The translations under genes were made by a program, and so were the position numbers. From the IMG/VR virus record IMGVR_UViG_648276661_000004, positions 1 to 11,064 of that record: a stretch of DNA of 11,064 bases, one strand, 5' to 3'. Of this stretch, positions 5,385 to 11,064 are shown piece by piece. This stretch comes from a virus. Taxonomy: Duplodnaviria > Heunggongvirae > Uroviricota > Caudoviricetes. The number at the start of each line of letters is the position of its first letter. The first letter of the stretch is position 1. Below the pieces are notes generated by a model. It was not told the origin of the DNA and did not search any database. It saw only the letters and a list, made by a program, of their open reading frames with translations.

Positions 5385-5414
5385 TTGCCTTTTTCCGGCA
5401 TTTGCGGATATAGT
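5385..5414 (+). promoter_or_regulatory. Sigma70-like promoter (TTGCCT - 18 bp - TATAGT), candidate PLE-type promoter for the immunity/early operon
   Basis: -35 TTGCCT at 5385-5390 and -10 TATAGT at 5409-5414 with an 18-bp spacer. It sits 36 bp after the vis stop and about 30 bp upstream of seqA. Confidence 0.5.
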
Positions 5415-5443
5415 TTTTCCGCTGCCGCAAAATCGGCAGCCGG

Positions 5444-5474
5444 GCGTGAGAACCCGAGCAATCTAACGGCGACA
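5444..5474 (+). promoter_or_regulatory. seqA-like antisense target (blocks GTGAGAA ... TCTAACGG complementary to the seqB-like segment at 5641-5663)
   Basis: GCGTGAGAACCCGAGCAATCTAACGGCGACA shares the two blocks GTGAGAA and (T)CTAACGG with seqC (5687-5730). Both blocks are complementary to CCGTTAGA...ATTCTCAC at 5641-5663. Confidence 0.45.
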
Positions 5475-5477
5475 TAT

Positions 5478-5499
5478 GACGCGCCATGCGTCTTTTTTT
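5478..5499 (+). terminator. Hairpin GACGC-GCCAT-GCGTC followed by TTTTTTT: candidate immunity (premature-termination) terminator just after seqA
   Basis: 5-bp GC-rich stem, 5-nt loop and a T7 run on the plus strand inside the operon leader. This fits the termination-based immunity mechanism of P4/P1-type antisense systems. Confidence 0.45.
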
Positions 5500-5589
5500 G
5501 TGTCGCAATCAACGCCACAGAGCGCCAGATTATGGTGTGGCGTGTGGTTTGCCGTGCAGGTATGATCCTGTTTGCAATCGCATGTTATG

Positions 5590-5670
5590 CCACTGAGTCA
5601 ATGGTAGCTCAGGCGGGGCAGCCTCCGGGCTGGCCGGTATCCGTTAGAGCCGGTATTCTCACCCCCGTCT
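5590..5670 (+). ncRNA. Candidate CI-like (C4-family) antisense immunity RNA containing the seqB-like segment; ends are approximate
   Basis: 5641-5663 (CCGTTAGAGCCGGTATTCTCACC) is complementary in two blocks to both seqA and seqC. It lies between the two targets as in P4. The exact 5' and 3' ends cannot be set from sequence alone. Confidence 0.3.
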
Positions 5671-5686
5671 GGGCTATCGCCATCGA

Positions 5687-5936: not shown

Positions 5937-6216
5937 TAAAAAAGCCCCTCAGACCGTCTCAGCGCGTCATGACGCCCGTGAACACCTCAGCATTGAGGCT
6001 TACCATAAGCTCAACCGCGCCAGCGCCGTATCCCAGTTTGTTGGGGGTGATTTGATTCACCGTGAACTCTCCGGCCTGCATCAGCTCTACATTCCGCATA
6101 TTTTCAGCTACCTGAATGAAGATATTGATTTTGTGCTGAATGAGCTGAAAGCCAAAGGCCTGTGCCGCGATTTTCTCGCCCAGCAGAAAGACCGGGGAGA
6201 CAGGACGCATGTTTGA
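5929..6216 (+). CDS. Hypothetical protein (95 aa), GTG start overlapping the kil stop; corresponds by position to the eta/epsilon region of P4
   Basis: The frame has no in-frame ATG at all, so the start is non-ATG; GTG at 5929 overlaps the kil stop codon (GTGCGTAATAA). The stop overlaps the next gene start by 8 nt. Composition matches the backbone. Confidence 0.55.
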
Positions 6217-6664
6217 TTTTCCCCAGCCCGGTGAGATTTACCGTTCTGCCGGTTTTCCCGATGTGGCCGTGGTCGGCATTCTGGAAGACGGTATTCCGTG
6301 GGAAATGCCGTACCGCTGCCCGGACATTGTCTGGAATCCGTACCGCCGTAAATTCAGTATCCTTGTGCGTATCCTCGCCGACGGGCGCACCACAGACATC
6401 CCGCTGGGGCGTTTTCTGCGGGAATTTACCTGTGACCGTCCTGACCTGTTTAAACGCAGCCCCGTAAACCGGCATGCGGTACTGAAAGAAATGGCCGGAG
6501 ACCCGGAATTACAGAAATGGCGGGAGAAATATCTGGATATTTACCCACAGGACCCTGTTCCGGTCAGCCGGGCGGCACCGGTGGCGCGGGAATGGAGGGA
6601 AATTCCCCGCACGGAGTCTGACCCGGAAATCACCCCGGATAACAGTTACCGCAATTATCTGTAA
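6209..6664 (+). CDS. Hypothetical protein, 151 aa (P4 orf151-like by length and position)
   Basis: ATG at 6209 with GGGAGA 8 nt upstream; overlaps the previous ORF stop, suggesting translational coupling. The 151-aa length and position two genes upstream of alpha match my recollection of P4 orf151. Confidence 0.8.
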   Translation: MFDFPQPGEIYRSAGFPDVAVVGILEDGIPWEMPYRCPDIVWNPYRRKFSILVRILADGRTTDIPLGRFLREFTCDRPDLFKRSPVNRHAVLKEMAGDPELQKWREKYLDIYPQDPVPVSRAAPVAREWREIPRTESDPEITPDNSYRNYL

Positions 6665-6737
6665 TTAAAAAACGACACCCGAAAAATTAAATGTGCGTAT
6701 TCGCGCAGGGATACGCACGTCTTCAGGAGACGCAGAT

Positions 6738-6803
6738 ATGCCTTATCAGTTAATGCAACCGGCACGGAATGCAGTCATCTGTCACAGGGAGGAAAACAAA
6801 TGA
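6738..6803 (+). CDS. Candidate 21-codon upstream ORF ([21 protein letters not shown]) translationally coupled to the 106-aa ORF
   Basis: ATG at 6738 with AGGAG 8 nt upstream. Its stop TGA (6801-6803) overlaps the ATG (6800-6802) of the next gene. Not on the ORF track because it is too short. Confidence 0.25.
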
Positions 6804-7120
6804 AAACACCCTTACCGCCCGTCTTACGCGCTGCCCTTTACCGTCGCGCTGTCGCCTGTGCCTGGCTGACCGTGTGCGAACGTCAGCACCGCTACCCGCA
6901 TCTCACCCTTGAATCACTGGAGGCGGCCATCGCCGCTGAGCTGGAAGGCTTTTATCTGCGCCAGCACGGTGAGGAAAAAGGGCGTCAGATAGCCTGTGCC
7001 CTGCTGGAAGATTTAATGGAATCCGGCCCCCTGAAGGCCGCGCCGTCGCTGTCCTTTCTCGGGCTGGTTGTGATGGATGAACTCTGTGCCCGTCACATAA
7101 AAGCGCCGGTACTGCACTGA
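6800..7120 (+). CDS. Hypothetical protein, 106 aa (P4 orf106-like by length and position)
   Basis: ATG at 6800 with GGGAGG 7 nt upstream. Lies immediately upstream of alpha; 106 aa. Confidence 0.8.
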
Positions 7121-7134
7121 AGGAGAACAACACC

Positions 7135-9468
7135 ATGAAAATGAACGTAACCGCCACCGTCAGCCATGCGCTCGGCCACTGGCCGCGTATTCTCCCGGCG
7201 CTGGGGATTCAGGTGCTGAAAAACCGTCATCAGCCCTGTCCGGTCTGTGGCGGGAGTGACCGCTTCCGTTTTGATGACAGGGAGGGGCGCGGCACCTGGT
7301 ACTGCAATCAGTGTGGTGCCGGTGACGGCCTGAAACTGGTTGAAAAGGTGTTTGGTGTCTCCCCGTCCGACGCGGCCACAAAGGTGGCTGCCGTGACCGG
7401 CAGCCTGCCCCCGGCTGACCCGGCAGTGACGGCTGCCGCCGTTGCTGAAACAGACGCTGCCCGGAAGAACGCTGCCGCACTGGCACAAACCCTGATGGCA
7501 AAAACCCGTCCCGGAACCGGTAACGCCTACCTGACCCGCAAGGGCTTTCCCGGCCGGGAATGCCGGATGCTGACCGGCACACACAGAGCCGGTGGCGTGA
7601 GCTGGCGCGCCGGTGACCTTGTGGTGCCACTGTATGACGACAGCGGCGAACTGGTTAACCTTCAGTTAATCAGTGCTGACGGCCGTAAGCGCACCCTGAA
7701 AGGCGGACAGGTCAGGGGCACCTGTCACATCCTTGAAGGACAGAATCAGGCCGGAAAACGTCTGTGGATAGCGGAGGGATACGCGACCGCACTTACCGTG
7801 CATCACCTGACCGGTGAAACGGTGATGGTGGCGCTTTCTTCCGTGAATCTCCTTTCTCTGGCCAGCCTTGCCCGGCAGAAGCATCCGGCCTGTCAGATTG
7901 TCCTTGCCGCAGACCGTGACCTCAGCGGTGACGGCCAGAAAAAAGCCGCCGCAGCCGCAGATGCGTGTGAAGGTGTTGTTGCCCTGCCGCCGGTCTTCGG
8001 TGACTGGAATGATGCCTTCACGCAGTACGGCGGGGAAGCCACCCGTAAGGCCATTTATGATGCCATCCGGCCACCGGCTGAAAGCCCGTTCGACACCATG
8101 AGCGAAGCAGAGTTTTCCGCCATGAGTACCAGCGAAAAGGCCATGCGTATCTATGAGCATTACGGCGAGGCGCTCGCGGTCGATGCCAACGGCCAGCTTC
8201 TGTCCCGCTATGAAAATGGTGTCTGGAAGGTGCTGCCGCCACAGGACTTTGCCCGGGATGTGGCCGGGCTGTTTCAGCGTCTGCGCGCGCCGTTCTCCTC
8301 CGGGAAGGTGGCCTCCGTGGTGGACACCCTGAAGCTGATTATTCCGCAGCAGGAAGCCCCCTCCCGCCGCCTGATTGGCTTTCGTAACGGCGTGCTCGAC
8401 ACGCAGAACGGCACGTTCCACCCGCACAGTCCGTCACACTGGATGCGTACCCTGTGCGATGTGGATTTCACCCCGCCGGTGGAAGGGGAAACGCTGGAAA
8501 CCCACGCTCCCGCGTTCTGGCGCTGGCTTGACCGTGCCGCCGGTGGTCGTGCGGAAAAACGCGACGTGATTCTGGCCGCACTGTTTATGGTGCTGGCAAA
8601 CCGCTACGACTGGCAGCTCTTTCTGGAGGTGACCGGTCCCGGCGGCAGCGGCAAAAGTATCATGGCCGAAATCGCCACCCTGCTGGCCGGGGAGGATAAC
8701 GCCACGTCGGCCACCATCGAGACGCTGGAATCCCCGCGTGAACGTGCCGCGTTAACTGGCTTCTCACTGATACGCCTGCCGGACCAGGAAAAATGGAGCG
8801 GCGACGGTGCCGGACTCAAGGCCATCACTGGCGGCGATGCGGTGTCCGTTGACCCGAAATACCGGGATGCGTACTCCACGCACATCCCGGCGGTGATTCT
8901 GGCCGTGAACAATAACCCGATGCGCTTCACCGACCGCAGCGGCGGTGTGTCACGCCGGCGGGTGATTATTCACTTCCCGGAACAGATAGCCCCGCAGGAG
9001 CGCGACCCGCAGCTTAAGGACAAAATCACCCGCGAGCTGGCGGTCATCGTGCGTCACCTGATGCAGAAATTCAGCGACCCGATGCTCGCCCGGTCACTGC
9101 TTCAGTCCCAGCAGAACTCAGACGAGGCACTGAACATCAAACGGGATGCCGACCCGACGTTTGATTTTATCGGCTATCTGGAAACCCTGCCGCAGACCAG
9201 CGGCATGTATATGGGGAACGCCAGTATCATCCCGCGTAATTACCGTAAATACCTCTATCACGCCTATCTGGCCTACATGGAGGCAAACGGCTACCGGAAT
9301 GTACTCAGTCTGAAAATGTTCGGGCTGGGGCTGCCGGTGATGCTGAAGGAATACGGACTGAATTACGAGAAGCGCCATACCAAACAGGGGATACAGACCA
9401 ACCTGACGCTGAAAGAGGAAAGCTACGGCGACTGGCTGCCAAAATGTGACGACCCTGCGACAACCTGA
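7135..9468 (+). CDS. alpha: Alpha replication protein: primase-helicase with C-terminal origin-binding domain (777 aa)
   Basis: N-terminal zinc motif CPVCGGSD...YCNQCG (primase type), a Toprim-like region, Walker A GPGGSGKS, and a 777-aa length equal to P4 alpha. AGGAG 9 nt upstream of the ATG. TGTTCACC iteron clusters on both sides are its expected binding sites. Confidence 0.95.
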   Translation: MKMNVTATVSHALGHWPRILPALGIQVLKNRHQPCPVCGGSDRFRFDDREGRGTWYCNQCGAGDGLKLVEKVFGVSPSDAATKVAAVTGSLPPADPAVTAAAVAETDAARKNAAALAQTLMAKTRPGTGNAYLTRKGFPGRECRMLTGTHRAGGVSWRAGDLVVPLYDDSGELVNLQLISADGRKRTLKGGQVRGTCHILEGQNQAGKRLWIAEGYATALTVHHLTGETVMVALSSVNLLSLASLARQKHPACQIVLAADRDLSGDGQKKAAAAADACEGVVALPPVFGDWNDAFTQYGGEATRKAIYDAIRPPAESPFDTMSEAEFSAMSTSEKAMRIYEHYGEALAVDANGQLLSRYENGVWKVLPPQDFARDVAGLFQRLRAPFSSGKVASVVDTLKLIIPQQEAPSRRLIGFRNGVLDTQNGTFHPHSPSHWMRTLCDVDFTPPVEGETLETHAPAFWRWLDRAAGGRAEKRDVILAALFMVLANRYDWQLFLEVTGPGGSGKSIMAEIATLLAGEDNATSATIETLESPRERAALTGFSLIRLPDQEKWSGDGAGLKAITGGDAVSVDPKYRDAYSTHIPAVILAVNNNPMRFTDRSGGVSRRRVIIHFPEQIAPQERDPQLKDKITRELAVIVRHLMQKFSDPMLARSLLQSQQNSDEALNIKRDADPTFDFIGYLETLPQTSGMYMGNASIIPRNYRKYLYHAYLAYMEANGYRNVLSLKMFGLGLPVMLKEYGLNYEKRHTKQGIQTNLTLKEESYGDWLPKCDDPATT

Positions 9469-9484
9469 CCCTCATGGCTCATCT

Positions 9485-9510
9485 GACCGGCATCTGCCGG
9501 TCTTTTTTTT
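9485..9510 (+). terminator. Rho-independent terminator of alpha (stem GACCGG / CCGGTC, 6-nt loop, T8 run)
   Basis: Perfect 6-bp stem GACCGG-CATCTG-CCGGTC followed by TTTTTTTT, 17 nt after the alpha stop codon. Confidence 0.7.
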
Positions 9511-9527
9511 ATCCCTGAATTCCCCGC

Positions 9528-9830
9528 AGGTGAACAATCCACTGCTCATCATTCACCGTGTATTCACCCGTTATCACACTGAAATTAAAAGAGAAAAACG
9601 AAAAGTGAACAGTGTGAACAATCAAATCAAAAAAAACTTTTTTCGCCCTGTGTGATTTCAGTGCGGAGGATTAATCCCCTGCACAAGTCACACCGGCAGA
9701 ATGCCGGAGGTGAAGAATCGAATGTTCACCCTTCACCCATTATTCACCACCTATCACTCTGAAATAAAAGGAGAAAAAAGAAAGGTGAACAGTGTGAACA
9801 GTTCTTTCGAAAAAAAATTTTTTTCCTGAG
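9528..9830. repeat. crr-like cis replication region: two ~120-bp direct repeats with 180-bp period, each carrying TGTTCACC/GGTGAACA-type iterons
   Basis: Copy A (about 9528-9646) and copy B (about 9708-9827) align along their length, for example CATTCACCGTGTATTCACCCGTTATCACACTGAAATTAAAAGAGAAAAACGAAAAGTGAACAGTGTGAACA against CCTTCACCCATTATTCACCACCTATCACTCTGAAATAAAAGGAGAAAAAAGAAAGGTGAACAGTGTGAACA. Each ends in an A-run/T-run. This matches the recalled P4 crr organisation of two 120-bp repeats separated by about 60 bp. Confidence 0.65.
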
Positions 9831-10026
9831 TTAACGTGCGTGAAGATACGTGTAAAAATTAATCGATAGATATTATATGTATAAGGATGTGTATAAATGA
9901 ATTATAATAGAAAAATATAAACGATTTGAATCAAATGGTTATATGGCAATTTTGACTCCTGTGATCTTCCGCCAAAATGCCTCTCCTGAACTCTCCCGAC
10001 GTCAACAACACTCCTTCGGAGGCGAC

Positions 10027-11064
10027 ATGTCAGACAAAGACTTAACCCAGCCCCCAGCAGGCGAGTTTATTATGTTTGCCAGCGGTGACGGAAGAGTGCG
10101 TGTTGAATGTCGCTTTGAGTCAGACACAATCTGGTTATCCCAGGCGGCAATGGCTGAACTGTACGATAAAGATGTTCGCACTATTAACGAACATTTAATC
10201 AATATATTTTCCGAAGGTGAACTTGTTCAAAACTCAACCATCCGGAAATTCCGGATAGTTCGCCAGGAAGGAAAACGTCAGGTTTCCAGAGAGATAGACC
10301 ATTACAACCTCGAAGCCATTCTCGCTGTCGGCTATCGCGTTCGCTCGCCTCGAGGCACGCAATTCCGCCAGTGGGCAACGCAGACGCTTCAGGAATACCT
10401 GATCAAAGGTTTTGTGATGGACGATGAGCGGCTGAAGAATCCGCCTGTCGGTTCATCGGTTGTGCCCGACTATTTTGATGAGATGCTTGAACGCATCCGC
10501 GATATTCGCGCCAGCGAGCGTCGGGTATATTTGCGGGTGCGGGAGATCTTTGCTTTAGCTGCCGACTATCAGCCATCGCTTAAAGAAACCACGCAATTTT
10601 TTCAAACCATCCAGAATAAACTGCATTTTGCCTGTACCGGGCATACCGCTGCGGAACTCATCCACAAACGAGCAGATGCCAGCCAGCCGCACATGGGCTT
10701 GACCAGTTATAAAGGTGAAGAGGTACGTAAGGGCGACGTGACGGTGGCAAAAAATTATCTCACCCAGGATGAGGTCAGCGAACTTAATCGCGTGGTTAAT
10801 ATGTGGCTGGACTTTGCCGAGGATCAGGCCCGTCGTCGTCAGCAAGTCTTTTTGCGCGACTGGCAGGATAAGCTGGATCAGTTCCTGCAATTTAACGACC
10901 GAGAGGTTCTACAGGGCGCTGGTAAAATCAGCAAGAAAATGGCCGATGAAAAAGCGCAGGCGGAGTATGTTCAGTTTGCCGAACAACAACGGCGCTTAAA
11001 AGAAGCCGAAGGCGAGAAGGATATCGCTGGTTTGCTACAGTGGAATAAAGAGTCGAAAAAGTAG
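10027..11064 (+). CDS. RhuM-family protein (virulence protein RhuM-like), about 345 aa
   Basis: Conserved RhuM-type N-terminal region (RVECRFESDTIWLSQAAMAELYDKDVRTINEHL ... AVGYRVRSPRGTQFRQWATQTLQEYLIKGFVMDDERLK). Start chosen at ATG 10027 with GGAGG 4 nt upstream; the track ORF begins earlier at 9943 without an SD. Stop TAG is at the window end. Confidence 0.8.
   Translation: MSDKDLTQPPAGEFIMFASGDGRVRVECRFESDTIWLSQAAMAELYDKDVRTINEHLINIFSEGELVQNSTIRKFRIVRQEGKRQVSREIDHYNLEAILAVGYRVRSPRGTQFRQWATQTLQEYLIKGFVMDDERLKNPPVGSSVVPDYFDEMLERIRDIRASERRVYLRVREIFALAADYQPSLKETTQFFQTIQNKLHFACTGHTAAELIHKRADASQPHMGLTSYKGEEVRKGDVTVAKNYLTQDEVSELNRVVNMWLDFAEDQARRRQQVFLRDWQDKLDQFLQFNDREVLQGAGKISKKMADEKAQAEYVQFAEQQRRLKEAEGEKDIAGLLQWNKESKK

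Follow-up and report, generated by a model that had tools for sequence, protein, structure and literature searches.

The satellite at selC and its relatives

The satellite P4 (X51522) has the gene order int ... psu-delta-sid ... alpha-crr-att and is targeted to leuX. Its cargo hotspot lies inside the element between psu and int, next to cos (PMC9122126), where P4 itself carries gop, beta and cII. In the annotated attP of P4 the short, gene-free, AT-rich interval from crr to the core (193 nt) contains a pair of arm repeats (GGGGGCA) spaced by 12 nt, and a second pair together with an inverted copy is found at the start of int. PAI I-536, a 77-kb pathogenicity island without satellite genes, is targeted to the 3' end of selC and also carries pairs of arm repeats spaced by 12 nt, with the motif GGGGGTAC. 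E. coli O157:H7 carries at selC, next to the LEE, a P4-family cryptic prophage known as 933L. With respect to RhuM, the family was named from the Salmonella SPI-3 island, rhuM is called a virulence gene in the Salmonella literature, and the SPI-3 gene is reported to be linked to selC, as is the rhuM described below. Prophages of the P4 family at selC, islands at this tRNA gene and genes of the RhuM family have all been known and annotated before, and the arrangement analysed here is an ordinary one.

The stretch of DNA analysed (the window; 11,064 nt, 50.4% GC, features on the plus strand unless stated otherwise) represents a P4-like satellite prophage of 10.6 kb in the 3' end of selC (tRNA-Sec) of a B2-type E. 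coli. The P4 core gene set is present (int, psu, delta, sid, an alpA/vis-like HTH gene, epsilon and the alpha primase), and the gene order is that of P4. Psu, Ogr_Delta, Phage_integrase and primase domains were found by Pfam, and ORFs of the window are equal in size and order to P4 sid, orf88, epsilon, orf151 and orf106. From 9440 to 11064 the sequence occurs at 100% identity in E. coli F11 and, among the matches listed, in about 20 other strains. The order in F11 is yicJ, selC, int, two ORFs, psu, delta, sid and further satellite genes through alpha and crr, followed by rhuM, a 369-bp hypothetical gene and yicL.

The first feature of the window is the C-terminal part (229 codons, 1-690) of a tyrosine integrase gene (PF00589, E 7.7e-27). 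The start of this gene is 160 nt after selC and 497 nt to the left of the window, and some 680 nt separate attL and selC from the window's left edge; the full gene corresponds to positions 6064-7251 of the F11 locus (L002), adjoining tRNA-Sec. Identity of the encoded protein is only 38% with P4 Int but 69% with the selC integrase of PAI I-536. The last satellite gene encodes the alpha primase-helicase (7135-9468), which in contrast matches P4 alpha at 99% identity along 776 amino acids. It is followed by a terminator consisting of a stem-loop and a T run (9485-9510), detected by a terminator scan at the position of the annotated P4 t-alpha, and by crr (9524-9823), for which both a repeat search and homology to P4 identified two 120-nt direct repeats (9524-9643 and 9704-9823) spaced by 180 nt. 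The two repeats are 79% identical to each other and 91% identical to the annotated P4 crr, which bears out the earlier description of crr-like repeats at this place.

The interval between int and psu, which corresponds to the P4 cargo hotspot (737-2431), is occupied by two genes other than rhuM. These minus-strand ORFs (737-1270 and 1271-2431) matched PDC-M18, a PADLOC candidate two-gene system (E 3.4e-16 for the B component and 2.3e-34 for the A component), and also PHROGs of unknown function; neither had a Pfam match. The cargo differs from the gop, beta and cII genes of P4, and cos would lie between it and psu. Upstream of the alpha operon, at 5408-5684, Rfam models detected the C4 antisense RNA, its a1/b1 targets and isrK (the P4 immunity RNA). 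No Rfam family was matched within 9400-11064, and no tRNA was found in the window by ARAGORN. The intact genes and the polymorphic presence of the element suggest that this copy would be able to move.

The right attachment site and the AT-rich arm

The right boundary of the satellite lies at the 23-nt core GACTCCTGTGATCTTCCGCCAAA (attR, 9954-9976), an exact repeat of the displaced tRNA-Sec 3' end. It comprises the final 21 nt of selC and 2 further nt, has its exact twin at selC, 10,634 bp upstream, occurs once in the window, and was found in shuffled sequence zero times even when 3 mismatches were allowed. Alignment of attB, attL and attR gave the expected recombinant pattern flanking the core. 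A repeat of this kind is what a tyrosine recombinase that targets tRNA genes leaves behind on integration, with attL in selC and attR at 9954-9976. The core differs from that of P4 in sequence as well as in its length of 23 nt. On this reading the satellite was inserted by its integrase at the 3' end of selC and the 23-bp core was doubled, such that the left copy completes selC and the right copy forms attR. Excision would be predicted to yield an attP reading spacer, core and CTTCATCC, and a restored attB reading selC, core and ATGCCTCT.

The original prediction had offered a satellite boundary in the AT-rich segment behind crr as one of two alternatives, arguing that an element comparable to P4 (about 11.6 kb) leaves little room for a 1.1-kb gene between crr and att. 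The length argument was correct (10,634 bp for this satellite versus 11,624 bp for P4), and the placement was essentially right, with the core beginning 9 nt beyond the limit of 9945 that had been set. It had further been expected that the search for a tRNA and a direct repeat would settle the boundary. The search did return the core repeat at 9954-9976, but its answer was ambiguous, as a degenerate copy is also present about 110 nt past rhuM.

The segment between crr and the core was confirmed to be very AT-rich, as had been noted (23.5% GC in 9831-9945), and extends over 130 nt at 25.4% GC when taken from 9824 to 9953. Similarity to P4, and to P4-like elements that use different att sites, does not extend past the end of crr (about 9823-9828). 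The spacer and core are kept together in 461 genomes, and the spacer is absent from those P4-like elements whose match ends at crr. We interpret the spacer, which is conserved with the core, as an arm specific to satellites that integrate at selC, namely the P arm of the former attP. Since homology ends at crr, and since Int is 38% but alpha 99% identical to P4, the integrase gene and the att arms would together be a swapped module with the spacer as its P arm. In layout, the resemblance to P4 is retained, with crr and core separated by a short AT-rich stretch that is free of genes (130 nt here, 193 nt in P4).

Two copies of TGTATAA had been reported in this segment, and the window contains exactly two, at 9878 and 9890. 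The pair by itself is not above chance, with 1.5 copies expected and 2 reached in 89 of 200 shuffled sequences. The longer motif ATGTGTATAR, with up to one mismatch allowed, matched seven times in the 33.6-kb chromosomal locus, and six of the seven matches fall inside the two att arms. In the right arm there is one pair spaced by 12 nt (9875-9896). In the left arm a second pair with this spacing follows the attL core at a distance of 110 nt, one inverted copy covers the int ATG, and a further copy lies just within int. The spacer pair, ATATGTATAA at 9875-9884 and ATGTGTATAA at 9887-9896, is listed as candidate arm-type integrase sites on account of this spacing and clustering. Judged from position, repetition and the P4-like layout, the TGTATAA pair most likely represents arm-type integrase binding sites. 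The P4 attP has the same arrangement of two pairs and an inverted copy, while the arm motif differs (TGTGTATA here, GGGGGCA in P4).

A candidate IHF-consensus site, AATCAAATGGTTA (9929-9941), matches WATCAANNNNTTR exactly and is located 13 nt before the core. The consensus occurs twice in the window against 0.47 occurrences expected, and an IHF-like site stands at the equivalent place in the arm before the degenerate second att. We infer that 9929-9941 serves in IHF-type bending. The spacer would then be the P arm of attP with a putative pair of integrase arm sites and an IHF-type site, and the site sequences would differ from those of P4 because the integrase is different. With respect to promoters, neither the spacer nor the empty site contained a plus-strand sigma-70-like promoter for rhuM. 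A minus-strand sigma-70-like match (9930-9901, TTCAAA-18-TATAAT, 10 of 12 positions) is directed toward crr, at a frequency expected by chance in so AT-rich a stretch.

The equivalent region of the O157:H7 element shares the tRNA, the proteins of the alpha operon and a crr-spacer-core end that is 96.8% identical, and differs in a core with a 1-nt deletion. In its attR (L006, 6295-6345) one T has been lost, and the adjoining bases AAACTTCCTCTTCTGA mix attL-type and attB-type flanks. This sequence suggests that the O157:H7 copy is no longer able to excise cleanly.

rhuM and the history of the selC locus

Between the core and rhuM lies the native sequence found downstream of selC (9977-10026), which serves as the rhuM leader and is joined to selC in empty-site genomes. 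It includes GGAGG at 10018-10022, its first 15-35 nt are retained in K-12 and O157:H7, and the P' arm of PAI I-536 starts with a homologous sequence. The gene itself (10027-11064) is intact, lies outside the satellite and, as described earlier, encodes a RhuM-family protein of about 345 amino acids ending exactly at the window edge, where the TAG stop is the last codon. The start at 10027 is that of RefSeq (345 aa, WP_001280586.1), and alignments with homologues and with the PADLOC profile likewise begin at the first residue of this form. The longest ORF (9943-11064) would give 373 amino acids from its first ATG. Because this ATG lies inside the satellite arm and the frame reads through the attR core, the 373-aa form was rejected as an artefact of ORF calling; an ORF caller would be misled by the start at 9943.

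To compare occupied and empty sites, as had been proposed for related genomes, a virtual empty site consisting of selC joined to the window from 9975 onward was searched against 5,426 complete E. coli genomes. In 789 of these selC is joined straight to rhuM without a large insertion between them, and many matches were 100% identical in one piece. In ATCC 11775, for example, the site is empty and reads selC, 52 nt, rhuM, a hypothetical gene and yicL, and its RhuM has the same accession as that of F11; the accession is thus the same in satellite-occupied and empty genomes. Conversely, the right end of the satellite (crr repeat 2, spacer and core) is present in 461 genomes, of which only 53 are contiguous from crr to rhuM. 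In MSB1_1D the same satellite end is continued by a 162-nt fragment of rhuM, setC and yicL, and in O157:H7 it runs into 35 nt of rhuM leader and then into ISEc8 and the LEE. As selC is joined to rhuM without the satellite in 789 genomes, and as the satellite end is elsewhere followed by other DNA, rhuM is flanking DNA and does not belong to the satellite, either as cargo or as a second cargo site. The suggestion of a second cargo site, which the original prediction had set beside that of a boundary in the spacer, is therefore refuted for this satellite. Starting 50 nt past the core, rhuM is older DNA that normally lies directly behind selC.

A repeat related to selC does exist beyond the gene. 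About 110 nt after the rhuM stop there is a degenerate core, GACTCCTGTGAT----CGCCAAAATGCCTCT, with a 4-nt deletion, followed by a decayed fragment of a second rhuM; the region corresponds to L002 17700-18040 of the F11 locus, 75-415 nt past the window end. Were this repeat the attR, rhuM would be internal cargo at a second site, and the DNA before the repeat is in fact an AT-rich arm that has an IHF-like site and some resemblance to the spacer of the window. We consider this highly improbable, given the 789 genomes with selC and rhuM but no satellite and the roughly 400 genomes in which the same satellite end has no rhuM behind it. The distal core also carries the deletion, its arm sites are of the type GGGGGTAC and not TGTGTATA, and it is common to the end of PAI I-536, whose integrase differs. 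Furthermore, the known P4 hotspot between psu and int (PMC9122126) is filled here by two other genes, and rhuM, lying beyond attR, is not located where P4 cargo is found. The internal-cargo model was rejected on the finding that selC is joined directly to the flank past the distal repeat in none of the 5,426 genomes. A 25-nt similarity between the 3' end of alpha and DNA after the distal att was judged to be due to chance, with about five 12-mer seeds expected in 13 kb.

About 95 nt before the distal core, and the core itself, are common to the right end of PAI I-536, such that the right-end arm and degenerate core of the island are the sequence just after rhuM. The distal arm holds a 12-nt-spaced pair, TTTGGGGGTAC and TGGGGTTAC, of the GGGGGTAC type, together with the IHF-like site. 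The attL arm of PAI I-536 has a repeat pair of this kind too, and its first part is homologous to the rhuM leader. By these likenesses the distal repeat is evidently the attR of an older island of the PAI I-536 type. PAI I-536 otherwise resembles the satellite in its selC target and its integrase, and differs in size, gene content and arm motif; strain 536 is without rhuM.

The most economical reading is that rhuM lies in an old, reduced islet bracketed by att remnants of the PAI I type, and that the satellite arrived later at a regenerated selC. The origin of rhuM as a reduced island is a reconstruction. It competes with the view that the yicJ-selC-yicL interval contained rhuM ancestrally, as an ordinary chromosomal gene, and that the degenerate att is an unrelated scar, to which we give perhaps one chance in a few. 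Consistent with an ancestral gene, rhuM or its remnants are found behind selC in B2 strains, in K-12 and, as leader only, in O157:H7, a 94%-identical rhuM occupies the same yicJ-selC locus in Klebsiella aerogenes, an 83%-identical copy is present in Salmonella, and no clean presence/absence difference for the rhuM islet was found in any genome searched. These observations have to be set against the arrangement of the flanks, with a selC core and a leader homologous to the P' arm of PAI I-536 in front of rhuM, and a P arm and core of the PAI I-536 type behind it. The second, decayed rhuM fragment after the distal core suggests repeated arrivals, and strain 536, whose island reaches the same distal att, has no rhuM. 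Under the islet reading, which we prefer, the locus would be a tandem accretion at one tRNA hotspot, made up of the satellite, a decayed rhuM islet and the scar of an older island.

In K-12 the same rhuM survives in decayed form as the pseudogene yicT (L004, 1400-1530), which follows selC directly and precedes setC; in MSB1_1D the equivalent fragment is labelled a rhuM pseudogene by RefSeq. In K. aerogenes a DUF6680 gene and a gene for a SymE-type toxin stand between selC and rhuM (L007, 5105-5769). On the strength of these two genes, the position next to selC collects small toxin-like or defence-like genes in other genera too.

We regard the explanation as a whole as very probably correct, that is, a satellite at selC with the spacer as its P arm and attR at 9954-9976, rhuM as a pre-existing flank, and tandem accretion. 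Within it the repeats, empty sites, alternative flanks and family memberships were directly observed.

The RhuM family and its possible role

The protein is a full-length, high-scoring member of its family. It matches PF13310 (E 5.6e-118) with 393 bits, against a gathering cut-off of 33.7, over profile positions 1-250 of 252, and PADLOC PDC-S05 (PDLC04852) with an E value of 2.8e-173 over residues 1-343; at the DNA level, a match of 83% identity was found in Salmonella. The family comprises 29,152 clusters at 50% identity (E <= 0.001). It was not found in PHROGs or NCBIfam, and a sequence search gave no relative with a solved structure. An AlphaFold model built from 50 diverse RhuM members had a pLDDT of 90, and the protein is predicted to consist of an N-domain resembling DNA-binding domains and an all-alpha domain without a solved relative. 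Residues R161, E164, N197 and K242 are invariant. Relatives carry Bro-N or Cro/CI HTH extensions. While many relatives lie in type I restriction-modification (R-M) operons or are fused to DOC, Bro-N or HTH domains, the rhuM described here stands alone. A relationship to DinD was rejected (BLASTP E 0.23, hhalign probability 0.08), DinD having only the Bro-N domain.

Earlier work connects the family with toxins and phage defence. One comparative study suggested that RhuM domains serve as toxins in R-M/PrrC loci and modify proteins, and noted their frequent fusion to DOC (PMC3710099); enrichment of the family beside type I R-M genes has also been described (PMC9881135). For a RhuM-domain gene of the PDC-S05 family that came from a cold-seep metagenome, a drop of about 1000-fold in the plating of T7 and T5 is reported (bioRxiv 10.1101/2024.09.26.614923). 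The statement in the original prediction that RhuM function is unknown is consequently slightly out of date, given that the family is the PADLOC candidate PDC-S05 and that phage protection has been reported for one distant member. For the E. coli rhuM of this locus a defence role is conceivable, at somewhat less than even odds. We infer that RhuM acts as a single-gene anti-phage protein, with DNA bound by the N-domain and the effect exerted through the conserved all-alpha domain.

A different view would make RhuM a protein-modifying toxin of the Fic/DOC kind, or a virulence effector, instead of a DNA-binding defence protein. One Salmonella record annotates a homologue as a Fic-family toxin, RhuM domains are often fused to DOC and have been proposed to modify proteins, and the family name comes from a Salmonella island. 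The RhuM protein had no Fic/DOC match in Pfam, however, its best structural matches are DNA-binding domains, and the fusion partners that we saw are Bro-N and Cro/CI HTH domains. A Fic/DOC relationship was not supported, with neither the Fic domain or motif nor the fold found, and we consider this alternative as a whole to be rather unlikely.

Returning to RhuM as a defence protein, its modelled architecture may combine a DNA sensor resembling KilA-N/winged-helix domains with an all-alpha effector, which may constitute a mechanistically new single-gene defence. The satellite ends 50 nt upstream of rhuM, where the native selC upstream sequence has been swapped for the AT-rich arm, and satellite and gene may form one defence island. 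That replacement of selC by the satellite arm places rhuM under satellite-dependent control and, separately, that RhuM is a new single-gene defence, is a speculative proposal that we think improbable.

For annotation, these results fix the right end of the satellite at window position 9976. The 373-aa ORF is to be rejected, and annotations of the satellite should list rhuM neither among its cargo nor as a second hotspot. As the locus contains att scars of several generations, repeat-finding alone can mislead. The rhuM gene is mildly interesting as a member of an abundant candidate defence family of about 29,000 clusters, and the locus as a whole illustrates the pile-up of elements at selC.
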